A stretch of 64,000 nucleotides of DNA from contig CM035362.1 in assembly GCA_020137815.1 (NCBI GenBank), forward strand, positions 6,138,001-6,202,000, given 5' to 3'. Below the pieces are notes generated by a model. That model was not told the DNA's origin and did not search any database. It saw nothing but the letters and a program-made list of their open reading frames with translations. The DNA is from Hormiphora californensis. Taxonomy: Eukaryota; Animalia; Ctenophora. Below are positions 18,853-55,991 of the stretch, one piece after another. Within the stretch, counting starts at the first letter, position 1. Every line of letters begins with the position of its first letter. The position numbers and the translations under genes are program-made.

Positions 18853-29416
<10,564 letters not shown>

Positions 29417-36863: not shown

Positions 36864-39800
36864 TTGGACCCACAACTTTGAACCCATATAGCGTCTTTCT
36901 AGACCATATTTGAAAGTTTTAACCCTTTAAGGACGAGAAGGATTGGCTCGATAGATTTTTCTAATTTTTCGTTTATAAGTAGATATTATTACCACAAACT
37001 ACCTCGAAAAGAAATTTGAAGTTTCGACATGTAGTTTTTGCTGGGCCCACTGTGTCATATATGACTCTATCGTCCGTAAGGGAATTCTAGTAACAAATGT
37101 AGTTGTGCAAAGTATGGGTCCAATAGCAAATTTTATGCTTTGAGGCAGTCTATAGCTATAATTTCTACAATCTTGAACGGTTTTTACTAGAAAAACCCCA
37201 AATTCTACATTTTGTATCATATATGACTCTATCGTCCCAATTGGTAAATTCTCCAAAAACATCATAACTCGGGCTAGAAAAGGAGCTAAGAGTCATCAGG
37301 GCATTAAACTGTGTAGAATCATCGCATTAGTGGGGGTAGAGCACATATTTAGGTCGCTATCTTGCCCCCTAATTGAGATAATTGGATAATTAGCCAATTA
37401 TCTGTCCCGCGCATGCTAATAAATGAAACTTTGCTTTGGGAAGGAGTTATGAGGCAAATGGGGGCACTAAAATGTGTAGAATCATCACATTAGTGGGGTT
37501 AGAGCACATATTGGTCTCTATCTGGACCCCTAATGAGATAATTGGATAATAGCTAATTAGGTGCCATCCAGCGCTAAAAAATAAATTTGGCGGAGTATAC
37601 AAGACAAATGGGGGCACTAAAATGTGTAAAATCGTCGCCTTAGTGGGGGGCAGAGCACATAGCTGAGTTTCTATTCCCGCTCCTAATTGAGATAATTGGT
37701 AATTAGCTAATTGACGGTTGCATAATGCCCCCTTTTCACCATATACCGTGGTTTCTGGCTAATCCTGAGCTTTTGTTCAATCTAAGGATCTTTCGGCATC
37801 CCTTTACCCCATTTATTCACCTTTGACCGTTTTACACAATAATATAGCACTCTAGATACAACCCAGACGCCGACTTCAGCTCTGTACAACTCCCTTGCTT
37901 CATCCTACTCCTAGCAGACCTCTCATACTAAACGCCTTCTACAGATCATCTTATTTCCGATGGAGTTATGAGAAGTTTCCTTAGTGCCAAATGAGATTGT
38001 GAGAGTGATGAGGAGAAATAATGTAGGGGGAATCTAAACTGTGTGTCCAATAATAAAATGGGAAACAGTAGTACATTAGGGGTTGAACGTCTTGTAGGAG
38101 CAATAGGATATCCCAAAAAATCGGTTAGGAAGGTGTATGGATCTCGAAATTATGAGAGGTCTAGGATAAGCAGATGGTTCTAAAGAGCTGAAGGCGGTGT
38201 CTAGGGTTGTGTGCTATATTAGTGTGTAAAACGAGTCAAAGGTGATACAAATGGGTAAAGGGATGCTAGAAGGGCCTTATATTGAACAAAAGAGCTCAGG
38301 ATTAGCCAGAAACCACGGTTTATGGTGAAAAGGGGGGCATTATGCAACCGTCAATTAGCTAATTATCCAATTATCTCAATTAGGAGCGGGAATAGAAACT
38401 CAGCTATGTGCTCTGCCTCTACTAAGGCGACGATTTTACGTATTTTAGTACCCCCAGTTGTCTTGTATACTCCGCCAAATTTGATTTTTTAGCGCTGGAT
38501 GGCAGCTAATTAGCTAATTATCCAATTATCTCAATTAGGGGTCCAGATAGAGACCTAAATATGTGCTCTAACCCCACTAATGTGATGATTCTACACATTT
38601 TAGTACCCCCATTTGCCTCATAACTCCTTCCCAAAGCAAGGTTTCATTATAGCATGCGGGGGACAGATAATTGGATATTTCCAATATCTCAATTAGGGGG
38701 CAAGATAGCGACCAAATATGTGCTCTACCCCCACTAATGCGATGATTTACACAGTTTAGTGCCCTGATTCGACTCTTAGCTCCTTTTCTAGCCCGAGTTA
38801 GGATGTTTTTGGAGAATTTACCAATTGGGACGATAGAGTCATATATGATACAAAATGTAGAATTTGGGGTATTTCTAGTAAAAACCGTTCAAGATTGTAG
38901 AAATTATAGCTATAGACTGCCTCAAAGCATAAAATTTGACTATTGGACCCATACTTTGCACAAATGACATTTGTTACTAGAATTCCCTTACGGACGATAG
39001 AGTCATATATGATACAGCGACTAAAACGTTAATAACTCATTCAATTTTCAATATTTTTTGATGCGGTTTTTTTGCATTCGTTTGTTATGTCAAGTAGTTT
39101 TATCCCTTCAAAGGATTATTTGTGCCCCTCAAAAACAAAAATTTGAGAGGGGTTTTTAAAAAAAGGCTTAAATTAGCCTCCGAGAAGGGCCATAAAAAAA
39201 TTTTTTCGATTTTCCGAGCTGATTTGGACGTGGTTTTGGGTTAAAAATCCCTAAAACTAGCTTGTGACAAAAAATTAGCAACCTAGACATCATGTAGCGC
39301 CTTCCAGACGGTCTAGAATGGACCGTGTCATATATGACCTATCGCCCTCAAAGGGTTAAATCGTTTCCAGGGTTGAACCATACATTTTTCTAGCATTTTG
39401 AGGTCGTTTTGAGCTTCTGAAGTTATCGACTTTGGAAAACAGGGCTAAAACAGTGCATTTGGTAGGCAAAATGGGTAGTTTAATGGCCATATCTCAAAAT
39501 TGGTACGAGTATAATTAAAATGGACTTGGAAAATGCAAGAAAAGTGGTATTTTACCCGGGGTAAGTTTCAGGGTGATGTTCCAAATTTTGTGCCTCTCAG
39601 AGGCCTTCAAAGTGCTGGGTCACCTGTGACCCAATCGTCCCCTAACGCTAAAAACGGAATTTGCATTTTACGAGCATTTCTAAAGGAATGGCCCCCGATA
39701 AAAGTCTAAAACGGCATTTTTTAAACAGTTGCTAGCGACTAACCGACTCTATCATTGTTATCTGAATCTTAGGTAGTCGATGAAAAAATTTTTGAGATCC

Positions 39801-40984: not shown

Positions 40985-43239
40985 TGTTGCAATGCTAGGT
41001 TTTGCGGGTTTAAGCGGGGTTTTAACGGTTAGCATTGCCTCACTAAAGTCACCTAGACAAAAGCGGTATTTCCAGTTTCGTGCATGAGCTAAGGCTCACC
41101 TCCTAATTGGTCTAAGTCTCAAAGTAATACACCTCAATTTGGTATAGATAAGAAAGTAATGTATCATGTTCAAGTTCACTAATCATGCTTCTACACATCT
41201 CACATTCTAATGTCACTACACAACTAATTCTGTCTATATTGTCTCAGTCTATAAGTCTCAACTATCTCACTAATCTATCTACTCAACTCTACTCTACTCT
41301 ACAGTTCACATATAGGTTTACGATGACTGATAGGACATCTGCTTGGCAAACAATGCTTCGTAGTACATATATTATTGACATGGGGACATCTGCTTGGCAT
41401 GGCTCGCTATGCCTACAGTTCACATAGAATATTTACAACAAGATGTCCCACTACTTGGGAGAGCTACTCTGCTTAGCATGGCTCGCTATGCTTACAGTTA
41501 TGAGCTGAGCTGAATGCTGAAATGGTGTCCCTTTTATACTGCTCCGGACCAGGCTTATCTCATGATGATCTATTATTGACGTATTTCCTGGCTGTGGGCC
41601 ATCTGTGTCTCGTGATTGTCCATTGACCTCCTTTGGCACCCTCTTATAGTTTCTCACTTTAGTTTATGTCTTTAGCTTCATCTCTCACGTCACGATGTGC
41701 TAACTAACTGGCGGGTCATCATTCCATCATGTAATTGGCATGTCGCCAGGCAATTAAAAGTAATCAATTCGTTATGGTCGAATTCTGGGTTTGGTCCAGC
41801 ACGTCACGGTATTGTAAGATGTAATCTAAATCACATGATCCTCGCACGACTATGTTCATTATCTCACGTAAGGGAACATCTCACGTTTGACTGTCATGTC
41901 TTTCCCTGGCCAGGTAATCACTGTGCCAACTTCCGGGTGTGATTGAATAATGGTTCAGTATAGGAATATGTAATATTCCAACAACCCCACCTTTTATGTT
42001 TTTAGCGTTCTCTCCGGTTTTTTGGATTTCTTCCGATCTTCAAATCTGTATTTATTTTGTTCCGATCTTCCAACATCACCCTTCCTTTTTTGTTTTTTAG
42101 GCTTCCTCCATATTTTTTAGTGTTTTTCCTCCTCCTTCTTCTTCTTTTTCTGCGATGTGACCGGTATATTGCCAGGCTGCTTCGGCCCAAAGAGACTTGG
42201 GGAGCTGGTGCCATACCAAATCACAGGTTGTGCTGGATTAATCGACCCTCAATTCTTTATCCACTCTCTATTCAGTCTGCAACTCCAACATCATAGGGAC
42301 ATCACTCCTCCTTTTGGTTTTTTCAGACCGTTTCCTCTTGTTTTTCGGCGTTTCATTGTGTATAGTAGACGTCCCTCACAGTTCACACTCTACTCTCTCA
42401 GTATCCTTATCTTACTTACTTCTTCACTCTTTAAAATATCACACACTAAAATTCTTACTTATAATATTTTTCTCTGCTAAGTTTCCTATTCACACTCACT
42501 CACACACTTTGCACACTTTATAGTTCACATTTCACACTTCAGTCTTGTGGCTTCTGCGGTATTATCTCAACACAGGCGTCTTTGCGGAACTTAGAATATC
42601 ATCACATGCACCCCACATTTCAAACAATCATGCATCCTGAGAGCTAGCTGACTTACTTTTCCTCTTCCTCTGATCATCTATTATCTGATTATATATCTTT
42701 TTAGAAAGTCTATCTTTTGCTGATAATGTTCCTTGAGTCTTCATTTTATCATATTTCACATCTATCATTCTTTAATCGTTCTTCATCACTCCTCGTCGTT
42801 TACAAAAACTTTACCTTTCTTGTTGTATTCATTATAAGTCCTCATTGTCCGTTTTCTATCTGTTATTTCCGGTAGATTCATACTCGGCACCCCTGTTGTC
42901 TTTGTGACTGGTACTTTCATGTATTATCTGTCCTTCCTCCATCTGTATGTAATACTGTCCTCATCTTTCTGTCTTTTGGATATTATGTTCTTTGTCCTCG
43001 TACTTTCTGGTCCAGCGGTTCGTTTTTAATATCTTGCCAAACATTTTCTGTAGTTTGTCTCCACAGTTTGTTTCCACAGTGGTTTTAATTGTATTTGTTT
43101 TTGTGTCATGTCTGTCGATTCTGTCAATTTGTTTTGATTTGTCTCCACTACCTGTACTGTCTCCTCACTTGTTGATTAATTGTTTGCATTACCTTTTTAT
43201 TATCTTGCTATATCTTTGTCATGACAGTATTCCATTCTT

Positions 43240-47607: not shown

Positions 47608-49394
47608 TTCTAGATTGTATTTTTGTTAATTTATCTATTTCTAGGCGAACTTGTGTTCGCTAACTGTTAAAATAAAGCGGAAGATTGTACTGTATTCTAT
47701 AAACGTTGCAAAGACTGGTTTAATCAAATAAATTGATGATATGATGTAAATTAAAATGCGATATGTTGTCCTAATTGTAGTCTCTTGTTGATTCAATTTT
47801 AATAATATGTATACACATACATTCAAGCTTACTTAACATGATAAGGCTTGCTTAATTAAATATGAAGTCTAATAATTATTTAAAGCAATTCAATTTTGTT
47901 ATAATCACTTAACAAGTCGTTCCTAACAAGTCTAGTAAATACACACAGAAAATATACATGTTCTTCCGTCATGTTTTTGTCTCTCTCTCTCTCCCTCTCT
48001 TTCCTTCTCTCTCTCTCTTGAAATAATACCATCTCTATTTACACCACAATTACCGTCATTTCTGATCATACTCGCAGCTTCAATTTCTTTACAATTACAA
48101 TACCCAAGCCACGTGACTCGTGAGCCATTTCCTTGTTTAACTATGCCTTTCATTCGCCATGTCTTATTTTTTTTTTTTGCCCAAATGCTAATACTACCAT
48201 TTCCCCGTTGCCCTTCCTCTACCATATGGCCACGGCAGTCGTAATAATTCTCTATTTTCACCCATCAGATTGGCACCAATCAACTGACTTGTATATTACT
48301 TTGACTTTATTTTACTATTTCTTTTTACTACACCTTTTTTAACCTCTTATTATATGTCCTCTACCTATGCTTATTCACATAACTTCTAATTATTCAATTT
48401 GACTAATTTTTAAATAGCTCACTTCCCTTTAACTTCCTTAATTCTATGTAATCTAGAGCTACTATCCTACTATGTAATTTTATGTAATTGCCTTTTCTTC
48501 CCGCAATGTCATTATCTATTTTCGCCTGTTTGCTATTTTCTACTCTGATCTATATGGTTTGTGTTACAAATATCTTGCCATCTAGAATGGATATGATGTT
48601 ACTATGATTCCCTCCCCATGATCTCCAACTACTATTCAACATTTCAAGGACATCTTTTCAACTAAAATTCCCGACAATTTGTAACTAACTTTCATCGCTT
48701 ATCGCATTTATCAACAACGTTCTTCAATCTTAGTAGTATAGTGCGGACAGTTGGGACCTATTTTAGCCTCCTAAGCGAGCCACCATTTTGTATGTGCATG
48801 TCACGTGACTTCTAATTACCAAAATTATGCGGCGCTGGCAAGAGTTGTTCATTAGAATATTGGGAGCGCCGGCAAGGGCCTTGGAATTTATTTTGGCGCT
48901 GACAAGGGCCCACATTCGCGATTGGGATTTCTGTATGATGTCAATTTTTGTTTGGGATTTCTGTGTGATCTCACCCCTATCACATTACACTCCTGCCACA
49001 ATGCATATAACTTTCTCTCTCTTTTCTCGTGCTGGTGTTCTGATACAAATAATAGAATACTCCAGAGTTCCCCCAATATTCATCTAATGTTCTTTTGTTA
49101 TTCTTATCGTTCTTTTGGTATTCCAGTGACTTTTCATTAGAAAGGAACGAGCCGGGAACGGTGAAAATTACAAAAGAACAGCATCGGAACGGTTTTTTGT
49201 TAGATAAGAAAAGTTGGAAAATACAAAAGAACAGTGGAAATTAGAACGGAACAACAGCGGAACGACGGCGGAACAGTAAAATGTTGCAAAATGTTTCGTA
49301 AACGAAAACATAACAACTTTGTGTCTATAAACAAATTAAGAGACAGGTTTTTCTCGAGACAAATTAATGAATAAATAAAATGCTAGCAGTTATA

Positions 49395-49832
49395 TCAAAA
49401 TTGAATCTTCATTATATCAAATCTAATGCAGACCACAGCTTCGACTTTCCATGCTGTAGATGGGCGTGAACTCCTTGCTATTTCTAGCAGATCTTCCCGT
49501 TCTATATTTTCTTTTACTTTTTTCACGTCTTCTCGCCCAGAAATTAATTGAGCAGTCTCAAAAACCATTGTATTATTAGAAGGGTGATAAAATTTAACTT
49601 CACCAGTAAGTTTGTTTGTCATAAAAAATCCGAATGCGACATTCAGTTTTATATCATTCTGATAGTTTTCCAAGACTTTATCTAGTTTACCAAAAATTCC
49701 ATCAGTGGGTGACAGTGGAAAATGATAAATATCTTTTAGTTTGCCTTTTGTAGTACGCTGACGAATAGTTGACCAATTTTTCCGGTACAACTCCCAAAAC
49801 TTGACGGGCACAGTATCTAGAAACGCGTCCAT
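49395..49832 (-). CDS. 145-aa protein resembling the N-terminal (pre-exonuclease, putative terminal-protein) region of Polinton pPolB
   Basis: LYRKNWSTIR, KLNVAFGF..N..TGEVKFYHPSNN, DLLEIARSSRPSTAWKV; ATG start, stop, TATATAAA ~45 nt upstream. Confidence 0.7.
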   Translation of the reverse strand: MDAFLDTVPVKFWELYRKNWSTIRQRTTKGKLKDIYHFPLSPTDGIFGKLDKVLENYQNDIKLNVAFGFFMTNKLTGEVKFYHPSNNTMVFETAQLISGREDVKKVKENIEREDLLEIARSSRPSTAWKVEAVVCIRFDIMKIQF

Positions 49833-50224
49833 GATTCTTATGGTAGCAATTATGCATAATTATGGTAACACCGGTTTATATAGCCAAAGATATGTTCTAC
49901 TTCAATTATCGACGGGTCATAGCACTGTTATTCCCAGTGTTCTTTTGGTATTCCAGTGACTTTTCATGAGAAAGGAACGAGACGGGAACAGTGAAAACTA
50001 CAAAAGAACAGCAACGGAATGTTTTTTTCGTTAGAAAGGAAAAGTTGGAAAATACAAAAGAACAGTGGATATTAGAACGGAACAACAGCGGAACGACAGC
50101 GGAACAGTGAAATATTGTAAACTGTTGCAAAATGTTTGATTCACTGGAACAATAAAACCTACTTTGTTTTTGGTTTGTAAAACAAATAAAAAGACCTTTT
50201 TTCAAAAAAAAGAAATATAATTAA

Positions 50225-50971
50225 CTATACATTTAAACTTTCATTTTCTAAATCTCTTAAAAGCAACAGCGTTTTTTCAACAACTTGGAAAATATTTGCA
50301 AACTCTTTAGAATATTTTAAAAATAATTTTTTGATTTCTTCAACGCTCTTTTTGTCAACTAATTTAATCAATTTTCGTTCTTTTTCATTTAATCTCTTTC
50401 GCTGAAAAACAACAAGTGGAATTACACCATACTTTAGACCAGTACACAACGTTTTAATAGCTTGTAAAAGTTGGTTACTACGTGAAACCTTGACAAATTT
50501 CTTTGAAGCAAACAATCGACTGAGTTCTAGAAAGTCAGCAATATTTTTGGAGTTAATTATTGAATCGGAAAACTCGTTAAAGGTACTGTCCTTAAAATTT
50601 GTTATAAACTCATCGAGTTGCTTTTCAAATAACCGAATGCGACTCAAATGTTGTTTTGATTCCGTCAGCTTTGTTTTGTACAAACGTTCAAACTTGCGAG
50701 CGTGCTGATCTCGCACATGATACAATTCCTTGTAATTTAGTTCAGGCTTTTTCACAACTTTAGTAAGTGTTGATACTGTTGGTGAAGGGTTTTCCGAATC
50801 TTTATCGCTGATATCTGCAGAGGTGTCATCTATTGGATAATCCTCATCTATCTGTAGTTCTTTGGTATCCATACCTTCATTAATCGTAGGCTTTTTGTGG
50901 TAGAGGTCTTTATGTTCAAGGAGTTGATAAATGAAGGGGAACGATTGGTCACACAAGTCACAAGCTACCAT
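50225..50971 (-). CDS. 248-aa protein: N-terminal C2H2 zinc finger, coiled coil, basic helical C-terminal domain
   Basis: CDLCDQSF...LLEHKDLYH; TATATAAG ~30 nt upstream of the ATG. Confidence 0.8.
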   Translation of the reverse strand: MVACDLCDQSFPFIYQLLEHKDLYHKKPTINEGMDTKELQIDEDYPIDDTSADISDKDSENPSPTVSTLTKVVKKPELNYKELYHVRDQHARKFERLYKTKLTESKQHLSRIRLFEKQLDEFITNFKDSTFNEFSDSIINSKNIADFLELSRLFASKKFVKVSRSNQLLQAIKTLCTGLKYGVIPLVVFQRKRLNEKERKLIKLVDKKSVEEIKKLFLKYSKEFANIFQVVEKTLLLLRDLENESLNV

Positions 50972-51029
50972 TTGTAAAGAAATGAAGATAGTTGTCCCTT
51001 ATATACCCATGGCATGACATCGAAAGAAA

Positions 51030-51383
51030 CTAGTTACTGCAGTTAGGACATTTATTTTCATAGGTTTCCGGAAACAGCTTGTTCGTAATATTATCAAACA
51101 TTTCTGGGTTCTGGTTTAGCATTTCACGAATTTCAGTTAATGAGTTTGATTCCTTAATGGCGTCCACAAGAAGTTTCTCGCGATCTGTTAGATCAGCTTT
51201 GCTGATATCAGCGTCAATAAGATCGTGCTTGAAAGCAAAGCAGTGTAGCAAGCATTGGTATGTATTTTCTCGGTCCGAAGATTCGCTATCAGATTGAGAT
51301 ATATCTGAGTCAGATTCTGGATCTGAAATATCACCTAAGCCCATTTTCTTAGACGATTCGTGACGCGTAATAGATCTTGACAT
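51030..51383 (-). CDS. 117-aa protein (ATG 51383) with an acidic Ser/Asp tract and a helical domain related to the C-terminus of the 248-aa ORF
   Basis: TATAAAAA ~35 nt upstream; LTDREKLLV..IKESNSLTEIREML....EMFDNI. Confidence 0.7.
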   Translation of the reverse strand: MSRSITRHESSKKMGLGDISDPESDSDISQSDSESSDRENTYQCLLHCFAFKHDLIDADISKADLTDREKLLVDAIKESNSLTEIREMLNQNPEMFDNITNKLFPETYENKCPNCSN

Positions 51384-53979
51384 GACTAGAAATGAGTTGC
51401 ACGCAATAAGCAATCTCTTTTATAGTTCCGAACTACCTATTTTACTGTTCTGGTGCTGTTCCGGTGTTGTTCCAGTGTATCACAAACCGTTCCGTTGTTG
51501 TTCTTTTGTAATTTTCACTGTTTCCATTTCGTTCCTTTTTAATGAAAAGTCACCGGAACACAATAGAACACTACAAATGATAAAGTAACGACAAAATCAT
51601 TTTCAGAACACCTGTGTAAAAATACGTTTCCTAGTTTATGTGTATATACTGCATGTTTTCGTTTATGAAACATTTTGCAACATTTTACTGTTCCGCCGTC
51701 GTTCCGCTGTTGTTCCGTTCTAATTTCCACTGTTCTTTTGTATTTTCCAACTTTTCTTATCTAACAAAAAACCGTTCCGATGCTGTTCTTTTGTAATTTT
51801 CACCGTTCCCGGCTCGTTCCTTTCTAATGAAAAGTCACTGGAATACCAAAAGAACGATAAGAATAACAAAAGAACATTAGATGAATATTGGGGGAACTCT
51901 GGAGTATTCTATTATTTGTATCAGAACACCAGCACGAGAAAAGAGAGAGAAAGTTATATGCATTGTGGCAGGAGTGTAATGTGATAGGGTGAGATCACAC
52001 AGAAATCCCAAACAAAAATTGACATCATACAGAAATCCCAATCGCGAATGTGGGCCCTTGTCAGCGCCAAAATAAATTCCAAGGCCCTTGCCGGCGCTCC
52101 CGATATTCTAGTGAACAACTCTTGCCAGCGCCGCATAATTTTGGTGATCAGAAGTCACGTGACATGCACATACAAAATGGTGGGCCGCTTAGGAGGCTAA
52201 AATAGGTCCCAACTGTCCGCACTATACTACTAATCTTCATAAAGACCAACAGCTATGTTATGTGGTTCAAAAGTACCTTACTACAACATTGGAAAATATG
52301 AAAACGTCTGTAGGAACAACAAATTTACTCAGTCGGAGCTACTAATCATTTTCAGCATGAGAAACAAATCTACATCAGAAGGAGCCACTATTTTCTGTGT
52401 TTTTCACTGCAAGTGTGAATTGGAAAGCTATCAATTTATTGAGTATGTACTAAAGCTCAAAGCGATTATATTATTATGTGTATTGTTTTAGAGGTAAACT
52501 AAAAGGGTTAATAAACTAATTAAATGTTAAATCTAAAATTAATTTGTCTATTTTAATTTACTCTAGTTTTTAATCAAGGCTAACAAGTTAGTAAAAAAAA
52601 CTATACGATCACGACCTATTTTATTTCGGGACAAAGTGCTAAAATTTCATAGTTCTAATTAAAATACTATAGATCTGGGGATAATTTACCTACAATTATT
52701 GTACTTATAGTTTGACATACCGAATGTAGCGTAGTTCGTCGGTTTGAGTACGTCTCCACTGTCTCCTGGATGTTCCAATTCTTTATCTTTCCGTTGCGTC
52801 TTTTATCAGAACAGTTATCACCCTTCTATGTTTATCTCTCCACCAGACCAAAGTTTCGGGAGACCAGTCCACCAGACCAAAGTTCGGGAACCTTTGCGCT
52901 TACCAGCACAGTTACTTATAAAATTATTACTTTGATTTTAAAGCCTACTCTCAAAATTTTCCTCTATCCTAATTCCTCTATCTTAATTAACATTTTCTAC
53001 AAGCAATTCTCACTACGTCTAACTACTTACTAAAGTTCAAACACCGAAGCCACCATGTTGCAATGCTAGGTTTTGCGGGTTTAAGCGGGGTTTTAACGGT
53101 TAGCATTGCCTCACTAAAGTCACCTAGACAAAAGCGGTATTTCCAGTTTCGTGCATGAGCTAAGGCTCACCTCCTAATTGGTCTAAGTCTCAAAGTAATA
53201 CACCTCAATTTGGTATAGATAAGAAAGTAATGTATCATGTTCAAGTTCACTAATCATGCTTCTACACATCTCACATTCTAATGTCACTACACAACTAATT
53301 CTGTCTATATTGTCTCAGTCTATAAGTCTCAACTATCTCACTAATCTATCTACTCAACTCTACTCTACTCTACAGTTCACATATAGGTTTACGATGACTG
53401 ATAGGACATCTGCTTGGCAAACAATGCTTCGTAGTACATATATTATTGACATGGGGACATCTGCTTAGCATGGCTCGCTATGCTTACAGTTATGAGCTGA
53501 GCTGAATGCTGAAATGGTGTCCCTTTTATACTGCTCCGGACCAGGCTTATCTCATGATGATCTATTATTGACGTATTTCCTGGCTGTGGGCCATCTGTGT
53601 CTCGTGATTGTCCATTGACCTCCTTTGGCACCCTCTTATAGTTTCTCACTTTAGTTTATGTCTTTAGCTTCATCTCTCACGTCACGATGTGCTAACTAAC
53701 TGGCGGGTCATCATTCCATCATGTAATTGGCATGTCGCCAGGCAATTAAAAGTAATCAATTCGTTATGGTCGAATTCTGGGTTTGGTCCAGCACGTCACG
53801 GTATTGTAAGATGTAATCTAAATCACATGATCCTCGCACGACTATGTTCATTATCTCACGTAAGGGAACATCTCACGTTTGACTGTCATGTCTTTCCCTG
53901 GCCAGGTAATCACTGTGCCAACTTCCGGGTGTGATTGAATAATGGTTCAGTATAGGAATATGTAATATTCCAACATAGT

Positions 53980-55991
53980 TTCTCAGGGTTTTTGTAAACA
54001 GGTAACATAAATATGCAAATAACGGCTAAACGGTGCGAGATACGACTTTTTGTCCGGGGTACGACCCCCCATAAATCGACTATTCTACGTCGAAATATGT
54101 CCATGAAAACATTCTAGGACCAGCTGAAGTGGAAATATTCAGAATATGCATTAATCATGAATCAGTGCATAAATATGCAAATAACGGCTAAACGGTGCGA
54201 GATACGACTTTTTGTCCGGGGTACGACCCCCCATAAATCGACTATTCTACGTCGAAATATGTCCATGAAAACATTCTAGGACCAGCTGAAGTGGAAATAT
54301 TCAGAATATGCATTAAATCATGAATCAGTGCATAAATATGCATATAACGGCTAAACGGTGCGAGATACGACTTTTTGTCCGGGGGACGACCCCCCATAAA
54401 TCGACTCTTCTACGCCGAAATATGTCCATGAAAACGTTCTAGGACCATTTGAAGTGGAAATATTCAGAATATGCATTAAATCATGAATCTGCACATAAAT
54501 ATGCAAATAACGGCTAAACGGTGCGAGATACGACTTTTTGTCCGGGGGACGACCCCCCCCCCCCCCCATAAATCGACTATTCTACGTCGAAATATGTCCA
54601 TGAAAACATTCTAGGACCAGCTGAAGTGGAAATATTCAGAATATGCATTAAATCATGAATCAGTGCATAAATATGCATATAACGGCTAAACGGTGCGAAA
54701 TACGACTTTTTGTCCAGGGGACGACCCCCCATAAATCGACTCTTCTGCGTCGAAATATGTCCATGAAAACGTTCTAGGACCATCTGAAGTGGAAATATGT
54801 AGAATATGCATTAAATCATGAATCAGTGCATAAATATGCATATAACGGCTAAACGTGCGAGATACGACTTTTTGTCCGGGGGACGACCCCCCATAAATCG
54901 ACTCTTCTACGTCGAAATATGTCCATGAAAACGTTCTAGGACCATTTGAAGTGGAAATATTCAGAATATGCATTAAATCATGAATCTGCACATAAATATG
55001 CAAATAACGGCTAAACGGTGCGAGATACGACTTTTTTGTCCGGGGACGACCCCCCATAAATCGACTATTCTACGTCGAAATATGTCCATGAAAACATTCT
55101 AGGACCAGCTGAAGTGGAAATATTCAGAAATGCATTAAATCATGAATCAGTGCATAAATATGTATATAACGGCTAAACGGTGCGAGATACGACTTTTTGT
55201 CCGGGGGACGACCCCCCATAAATCGACTCTTCTGCGTCGAAATATGTCCATGAAAACGTTTCTAGGACCATCTGAAGTGGAAATATTCAGAATATGCATT
55301 AAATCATGAATCTGCGCATAAATATGCAAGTAACGGCTAAACGGTGCGAGATACACACTTTTTGTCCCGGGGACGACCCCCATAAATTGACTCTTCTGCG
55401 TCGAAATATGTCCTTTGAAATGTCCTTACAAAACCAAACCGAGATAATCATAAAATTATACATAAATTATGCATAATTAATGACTTCCCATGCTCAAATC
55501 AAAATTTTACATAGCCTACGACATGTAGAATAGTCCGATTTATGGGGGTCTTCCCCGGGCAAAAAGCTCTAAATCCAGCCGTTTTTTTGCTCAGTTTGGT
55601 TTGTAAAAGGTCGTGCGTATGTATGTATGTATGTATACAGAGCAAGCGTTTGGGACCCCCCTCGTAACTTTTGAACGAAACCATCGATCCACTTGAAATT
55701 TAAACACTATTAGATATCATTGAGGTAGCTTTACATACAAAATTTCAGCGTGCTAGCTTGTCGGAACATGGTTAAATAGACGCTCGAAAAGGGCGAAAGT
55801 CACATCCGTATGGTATACTGCACTGGCCCCGAATCGGGCGAAATTAAATTTTCCGCGCCTGAGTTTATCCTTTCAGATTTGATCTTATAATGTTCTAGGA
55901 TGACCTTAGAAGGGGTGGGATGGTTTTTCATTGCTGGGGGCTTTGCCCCCAGACCCCCATTAGGCCACGGGGCACTTGCCAGTGCAGTGAT
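53980..55991 (-). mobile_element. Probable non-autonomous Helitron/Helentron-type element carrying the satellite
   Basis: End sequence GCCAGTGCAGT (55978-55988) inverted ~160 bp inside (55817-55827), then (GTAT)n, then the tandem array; absent at the paralogous site near 10610. Confidence 0.5.
54007..55415. repeat. 163-bp tandem satellite, ~8.6 copies
   Basis: ATAACGGCTAAACGG recurs at 54019, 54181, 54344, 54507 and onward. Confidence 0.95.

Follow-up and report, generated by a model that had tools for sequence, protein, structure and literature searches.

Can an element that carries the ends of a Polinton and no recognisable polymerase, integrase or capsid gene be a genetic entity in its own right, or is it the leftover of a larger one? 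The question is raised by a 3,500-bp insertion, here called the mini-Polinton, at positions 48732-52231 of a 64,000-nucleotide stretch of the genome of the ctenophore Hormiphora californensis (GenBank assembly GCA_020137815.1, contig CM035362.1, positions 6,138,001 to 6,202,000 of the forward strand; hereafter the window, from whose first letter all coordinates are counted). The family of mini-Polintons to which the insertion belongs is real, has moved recently and codes for proteins, among them a predicted primer protein. The interpretation favoured here, with a probability of about 0.6, is that of a coding, non-autonomous satellite of Polintons, which brings its own replication primer but relies on a full-size Polinton for polymerase and integrase.

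Termini, insertion site and gene arrangement

AGT-repeat ends are a feature of Polintons, and the mini-Polinton starts with AGTAGT and ends with ACTACT. The terminal inverted repeats (TIRs) occupy 580 bp on the left (48732-49311, plus strand; a predicted origin and integrase site) and 579 bp on the right (51653-52231, minus strand) and are 98.6% identical over 580 aligned columns, with seven substitutions and one indel. The 6-bp target-site duplication (TSD) AATCTT flanks the element on both sides (48726-48731 and 52232-52237, plus strand), a match with a chance probability of about 6e-4. These termini, TIRs and TSD stand as described in an earlier reading of the window made without database searches (the sequence-only reading), and the sizes resemble the 6-bp TSD and 584-bp TIR in the part of the literature describing a lizard Polinton (PMC3014272).

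A 13-kb element of long terminal repeat (LTR) type surrounds the mini-Polinton; its TG...CA repeats lie at 40985-41983 and 53056-53975, and it has a TAGT duplication. Since these LTRs are nearly identical (about 920 bases align with no more than three mismatches, and there is one indel of 79 bp), the nested insertion is probably young. Seven of the eight differences between the TIRs fall within the outer 243 bp. Divergence is also higher between the TIRs (1.4%) than between the LTRs around them (about 0.3%), so the two ends probably already differed before insertion, perhaps via recombination between variants. There is no further copy elsewhere in the window. A chance inverted repeat or an assembly artefact was considered and is ruled out by the TSD, by the conserved open reading frames (ORFs) and by the presence of the element in other organisms.

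The interior holds, as previously read, three intact, intronless, co-oriented ORFs, all on the minus strand and the only interior ORFs longer than 100 amino acids (aa): ORF1 (117 aa, 51030-51383), ORF2 (248 aa, 50225-50971) and ORF3 (145 aa, 49395-49832). TATA-like boxes on the same strand precede each of them. The spacing of 30-45 nt claimed for these boxes holds for ORF1 (51419-51424) and ORF2 (50999-51005), where they begin 41 and 34 nt ahead of the ATG; it does not hold for ORF3 (49875-49882), whose box begins 50 nt ahead, if the distance is measured from the start of the box. Additionally, a GGAAC-rich stretch of 207 bp from the TIR recurs at 89-90% identity upstream of ORF3 (49926-50132), where it is a candidate promoter or enhancer module, and a partial second copy (83-86%) lies upstream of ORF1 (51438-51572). 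Neither these internal copies nor the predicted part of ORF3 in Polinton replication had been noted in the sequence-only reading.

ORF3 is a predicted stand-alone terminal protein

A full HMMER search with ORF3 returned 698 relatives at E≤0.001, the best 150 of which were listed. Of 33 longer matches scanned, four passed the Pfam DNA_pol_B_2 model, with the ORF3-like domain preceding the polymerase, and many contained C2H2 fingers; all nine other long matches tested align across the polymerase to a DNA_pol_B_2-positive one. Conversely, ten full-length protein-primed B-family polymerases (pPolBs) compared with the window match it solely at ORF3. Sections of Krupovic et al. (bioRxiv 10.1101/2024.03.18.585575) describe the N-terminal D1 domain of the Polinton pPolB as a PRD1-like terminal protein (TP), an assignment dating from 2024 and made by structure modelling alone. 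The fold there comprises a four-stranded sheet and two helices, with a hydroxyl residue near a proline or glycine in the loop preceding the last strand; the priming residue is serine or tyrosine in the D1 domains examined and serine, threonine or tyrosine for TPs generally, and the best structural match of all TPs is the little-finger domain of Y-family polymerases (same source).

The AlphaFold2 model of ORF3, built from a 96-sequence alignment (predicted local distance difference test score 94), fits this layout in its sheet, helices, loop (residues 122-127) and final strand. The predicted linking loop reads R-P-S-T126-A-W, with Pro124, Ser125 and Thr126 inside it and Thr126 as the predicted priming residue. 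Serine or threonine occupies position 126 in 132 of the 137 matches with a residue there: 70 of 72 fused proteins, 46 of 47 others and 16 of 18 stand-alone ones, a class assigned by length that includes three proteins (P0051, P0128 and P0146) which fall outside the clade of ORF3 described below and may be cut gene calls. Pro124 is conserved nearly as well as position 126. Among viral folds the model is matched best by a protein of an adintovirus (E 1.9e-5), followed by one of 1,064 aa from a densovirus and by the PolB of a MELD virus. In the PDB, the ten chains at Z≥5 include five little-finger (LF/PAD) domains of Y-family polymerases, at modest Z-scores of 5.0-5.6, the best being 1unn_D (Z 5.6, root-mean-square deviation (rmsd) 2.8, 87 aligned residues); the ESM Atlas gave no usable match. 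ORF3 thus combines the three features of PRD1-like TPs, namely homology to the domain N-terminal to pPolB, an LF/PAD-like fold of two helices and a sheet of four or five strands, and a loop serine or threonine near a proline, and is predicted to be a terminal (primer) protein.

The retention of the priming residue bears on one alternative role, in which the mini-Polinton is an interfering or defensive element whose free TP acts as a decoy, poisoning the replication of the helper, its spread being tolerated or favoured by the host. A free TP without a polymerase could conceivably compete for origins, and the apparent diversity of copies is high. A working primer is what the serine or threonine kept in those 16 stand-alone TPs suggests, and the recent, clean-ended insertion shows ongoing mobility; we regard the decoy as highly improbable.

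Short stand-alone terminal-protein homologs form a clade of their own

ORF3 was placed with 143 of its best 150 matches, seven with a domain shorter than 95 aa having been dropped, in a quick maximum-likelihood tree without bootstrap. It falls in a clade of 27 rows (Shimodaira-Hasegawa-like approximate likelihood ratio test support 98) in which every member is at most 212 aa long, while all ten full pPolBs fall outside. Most full-length members of the clade stop right after the last strand and have a C-terminal signature of their own in common. A recent truncation of a fused pPolB is ruled out as the source of ORF3 by the separate clade, this signature and the position of the stop, and the clade of short stand-alone TPs is diverse. 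The longest contigs of ten stand-alone TP clusters that were looked up are shorter than 5 kb, short contigs being usual in the underlying data, save one of 19,870 bp.

ORF2, ORF1 and the genes that are absent

ORF2 has an N-terminal C2H2-like finger, an acidic linker, a long helix and a helical C-terminal domain, and its 16 relatives, at 45-94% identity, conserve the finger and the helical remainder around a variable linker. The ORF2 model has no match at E≤0.001 among viral folds, and its best match in BFVD is a weak one to GasderminX of a Terrapene adintovirus (E 0.026, probability 1.00, target TM-score 0.71, rmsd 3.1, 112 columns); against the PDB it found generic helices only, with no gasdermin among the matches listed. 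GasderminX is presented as a Beta-class virion accessory gene of adintoviruses in section 3.2 of Starrett et al. (PMC8502044). Speculatively, the most likely role for ORF2 would be that of a virion-accessory or helper-interacting protein. ORF1, with an acidic serine-rich N-terminus, a conserved core and a C-terminal CxxC, has six relatives at 58-94% identity that keep the full length and the CxxC; ORF1 has no Pfam match above threshold, the ORF1 profile gave nothing meaningful against PDB sequences, and a small regulator is a speculative assignment.

For each of the three genes, relatives of full length extend to identities of 45-60% or below. ORF1 and ORF2 each have a 94% relative on a 3,253-bp contig, probably one and the same. 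Further, a 1,532-aa gene model from Pleurobrachia bachei in EukProt (P0017) joins copies of ORF2 (five) and ORF1 (three) at 89-93% identity and clusters with the ORF2 relative; copies that lie close together or in tandem, or an error of assembly, could account for it. The similarity makes it likely that the host is a comb jelly in or close to this genus.

Beyond ORF3, the ten pPolBs found no polymerase in the window, and the three ORFs gave only sub-threshold Pfam matches, none of them to an integrase, ATPase, protease or capsid, so that the absence of polymerase, integrase and capsid previously noted for the element is upheld. For a capsid, additionally, the ORF2 model is nearly all helix, ORF3 is the predicted TP and ORF1 has just 117 aa. 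Compared with an autonomous Polinton/Maverick, for which a pPolB is part of the definitional wording in a portion of PMC5499653, the mini-Polinton has the long TIRs (580 bp) and the 6-bp TSD (AATCTT), and the pPolB, the retrovirus-like integrase and the capsid, packaging ATPase and protease genes were not detected. It also differs from a MITE (miniature inverted-repeat transposable element), which has no coding capacity, in its three conserved ORFs, and from a transpoviron, which has its own pPolB-helicase gene. A cut-and-paste transposon with captured host genes was rejected, since a transposase is absent and a TP gene present.

A dispersed family with an excess of silent coding differences

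Sequence words of the mini-Polinton occur in 18 of the 20 public runs listed, with shares of 58-85% in six runs of one organism (A), 13-16% in five runs of a second (B) and small shares in seven marine metagenomes; there are no RNA runs among those listed as holding such words. Contigs of varied identity were aligned from three runs of A and one of B (5,167, 1,520, 980 and 272 contigs), and in all four runs they cover all 22 bins that touch the mini-Polinton and almost nothing beyond, although contig depth over the element is not copy number. Contigs join ORF1 to ORF2, and ORF3 to both the internal block and the TIR. At the left terminus the cover begins at 48732, where ten contigs in eight rows, from the four runs, carry differing flanks; the mini-Polinton family is therefore dispersed and multi-copy. 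The flanks of the window insertion itself have no cover in these runs, which says nothing about occupancy of the site. Among the differences between copies, 22 of 37 coding ones are silent, with no stops, compared with a neutral expectation of 20-29% silent (p=2e-4 at 30%), in a test that drew on 40 of 175 differences and treated sites as independent.

Differing flanks, this excess of silent changes and relatives at 45-60% identity or lower describe neither a single copy nor neutrally evolving ORFs, and the previous proposal of a compact, satellite-like element rather than a random deletion is supported by the multiple copies, the silent excess and the full-length relatives. In the principal rival the mini-Polinton is an internal-deletion derivative of a full-length Polinton with a split TP gene, a leftover terminal block whose short form is multiplied in trans, as a large MITE would be, without any activity of its own. 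Polintons that encode the TP separately do exist, one stand-alone TP sits on the 19.9-kb contig mentioned above, and Logan contigs break at branch points, such that a junction with the parent can be missed, 470 rows of loose ends falling outside the listing. The pattern expected of a leftover block is hard to reconcile with variant contigs that leave no part of the 3.5 kb uncovered in either of two organisms, only 0-4% of them extending into unlike sequence, and that bridge ORF1-ORF2 and ORF3-TIR. Nor is it easily squared with the silent excess among the listed coding differences, the built look of TIR-derived blocks repeated upstream of genes, the 94% relatives of ORF1 and ORF2 on what is inferred to be a single 3,253-bp contig, or the lack of any polymerase or integrase remnant. 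Passive descent by deletion is accordingly considered unlikely, though it retains an appreciable share of the probability.

A terminal signal in common with another family

In one metagenome assembly, 20 of 20 loci recovered with the terminus end with the first 24 nt of the mini-Polinton exactly and differ beyond them, and TCACGTGACT is common to 17 of the 20. The loci include four end pairs with reverse-complement flanking hexamers, a count that none of 20,000 simulations reached. Because the 24 nt are identical in an otherwise differing family and are accompanied by matching hexamer pairs, the terminus is a conserved signal, read in cis, for an integration system that duplicates 6 bp and serves more than one family.

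In another reading the mini-Polinton is one segment of a multipartite Polinton-like virus, in which small elements with the same ends carry different modules (primer, polymerase, packaging) and complement each other. The terminal 24 nt common to otherwise unrelated families and the occurrence of variant terminal sequences in the same runs fit this arrangement; partner segments were not found, the 20 loci with the same terminus come from a single assembly, and standard pPolBs with a fused TP are abundant among the relatives of ORF3, leaving a segmented virus improbable. A satellite of full-size Polintons remains the favoured reading, and for it a helper was sought: neither IMG/VR, scanned with the terminus, ORF3 and the alignments of ORF2 and of the stand-alone TPs, nor GTDB yielded a match.

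Other features of the window

Several further features lie outside the mini-Polinton. At 21346-25897 lies a 4.55-kb LTR element whose 781-bp LTRs (TG...CA) do not differ; it has a CTGA duplication and two gag-like ORFs that Pfam does not match, and no long polymerase ORF is listed for it. An element of about 2 kb at 37050-39017 has 874-bp inverted arms at 92% identity, receptor-gene-like open frames at 18853-20479 encode weak ephrin-receptor-like cysteine repeats and an SRCR domain, and a tandem array with units of about 163 bp occupies 54005-55426.

Discussion

In the favoured satellite model, a copy of the mini-Polinton would leave the chromosome as linear DNA with the TIR ends as origins, ORF3 would bind these ends and take the first nucleotide on Thr126, and the pPolB of the helper would extend from the ORF3-bound nucleotide by strand displacement. 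The retrovirus-like integrase of the helper would then insert the product with a 6-bp duplication. ORF2, with its finger, coiled coil and GasderminX-like domain, may assist entry into the particles of the helper or attach to its proteins, and ORF1 may have a regulatory role. In protein-primed replication one TP is consumed per new strand; a satellite with its own TP would therefore be freed from the primer supply of the helper, and would have a reason to keep the TP gene while dropping the catalytic ones. The previous suggestion that replication and integration are both borrowed from a helper would consequently not extend to priming, given the predicted TP, while the rest of that suggestion is supported.

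Several observations weigh against the satellite model. A helper Polinton was not found in the IMG/VR and GTDB scans, and a second full-length copy was not seen end to end, as no aligned contig spans the whole mini-Polinton. The silent-site test covers 37 coding differences, from 40 of 175, on the assumption of independent sites, and its excess may in part stem from selection that acted on a parent element. For ORF3, the PDB Z-scores are below 8, with an unrelated ATP-grasp enzyme in the top row (Z 5.7, rmsd 3.0, 62 aligned residues), and the tree was made by a quick method lacking bootstrap. The clade member on the 19,870-bp contig could belong to a full Polinton, and a Polinton with a split TP has been described from the coral Stylophora in part of the Krupovic et al. 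preprint. The GasderminX match of ORF2 stands at E=0.026, and the joined Pleurobrachia bachei gene model is without ORF3.

Among known systems, Polintons/Mavericks, including the animal adintoviruses with C2H2 fingers before the TP domain, resemble the mini-Polinton in long TIRs, the 6-bp TSD and a TP-domain homolog, and the adintoviruses in a GasderminX-like gene, by a weak match; the mini-Polinton differs in its 3.5-kb size, the undetected enzyme and capsid genes and a TP that is a separate 145-aa gene of a distinct clade. The Stylophora split-TP Polinton, adenovirus (pTP) and PRD1 likewise encode the TP as its own gene, with the same predicted fold and linking-loop position, but their genomes encode the polymerase too, and the long helical extensions described for the PRD1 and adenovirus TPs are lacking in ORF3.

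The 'N' families of Repbase are non-autonomous Polinton derivatives, and such derivatives and MITE-like elements have, like the mini-Polinton, kept their ends, lost their enzymes and been moved in trans. Polintons without polB are described with LINE or LTR cargo in the relevant part of bioRxiv 10.1101/2025.02.07.637071, whereas the mini-Polinton carries intact genes with a silent-site excess, a primer among them. Transpovirons and linear plasmids are also small, capsid-less, linear-type, virus-dependent and of Polinton ancestry, but encode their own pPolB or a pPolB-helicase fusion (described in part of bioRxiv 10.1101/2024.03.18.585575), while the mini-Polinton has no polymerase of its own and integrates with a 6-bp TSD. 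No TP-encoding, polymerase-less, non-autonomous Polinton was met with in the literature searched, with subscription papers and bioRxiv supplements outside its scope. The mini-Polinton may stand as type member for a class of animal DNA satellites that is old, widespread and undescribed, TP-only mini-Polintons that come with their own primer and parasitise Polinton viruses, with the clade of TPs of about 145 aa (25-58% identity) marking many such families in marine animals; this broader proposal is tentative, and we would place it somewhat short of even odds.

To our knowledge, the replication of Polintons in animals has never been reconstituted. A natural, stand-alone predicted TP of 145 aa, apparently under selection in a successful element without a polymerase, provides a compact protein for testing, with a single priming residue predicted, and its presence argues that integrated Polinton-type elements really do go through a linear DNA stage that is protein-primed. 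Should the satellite reading be true, Polinton viruses would have coding hyperparasites of their own in animal genomes, comparable to the virophages on giant viruses.

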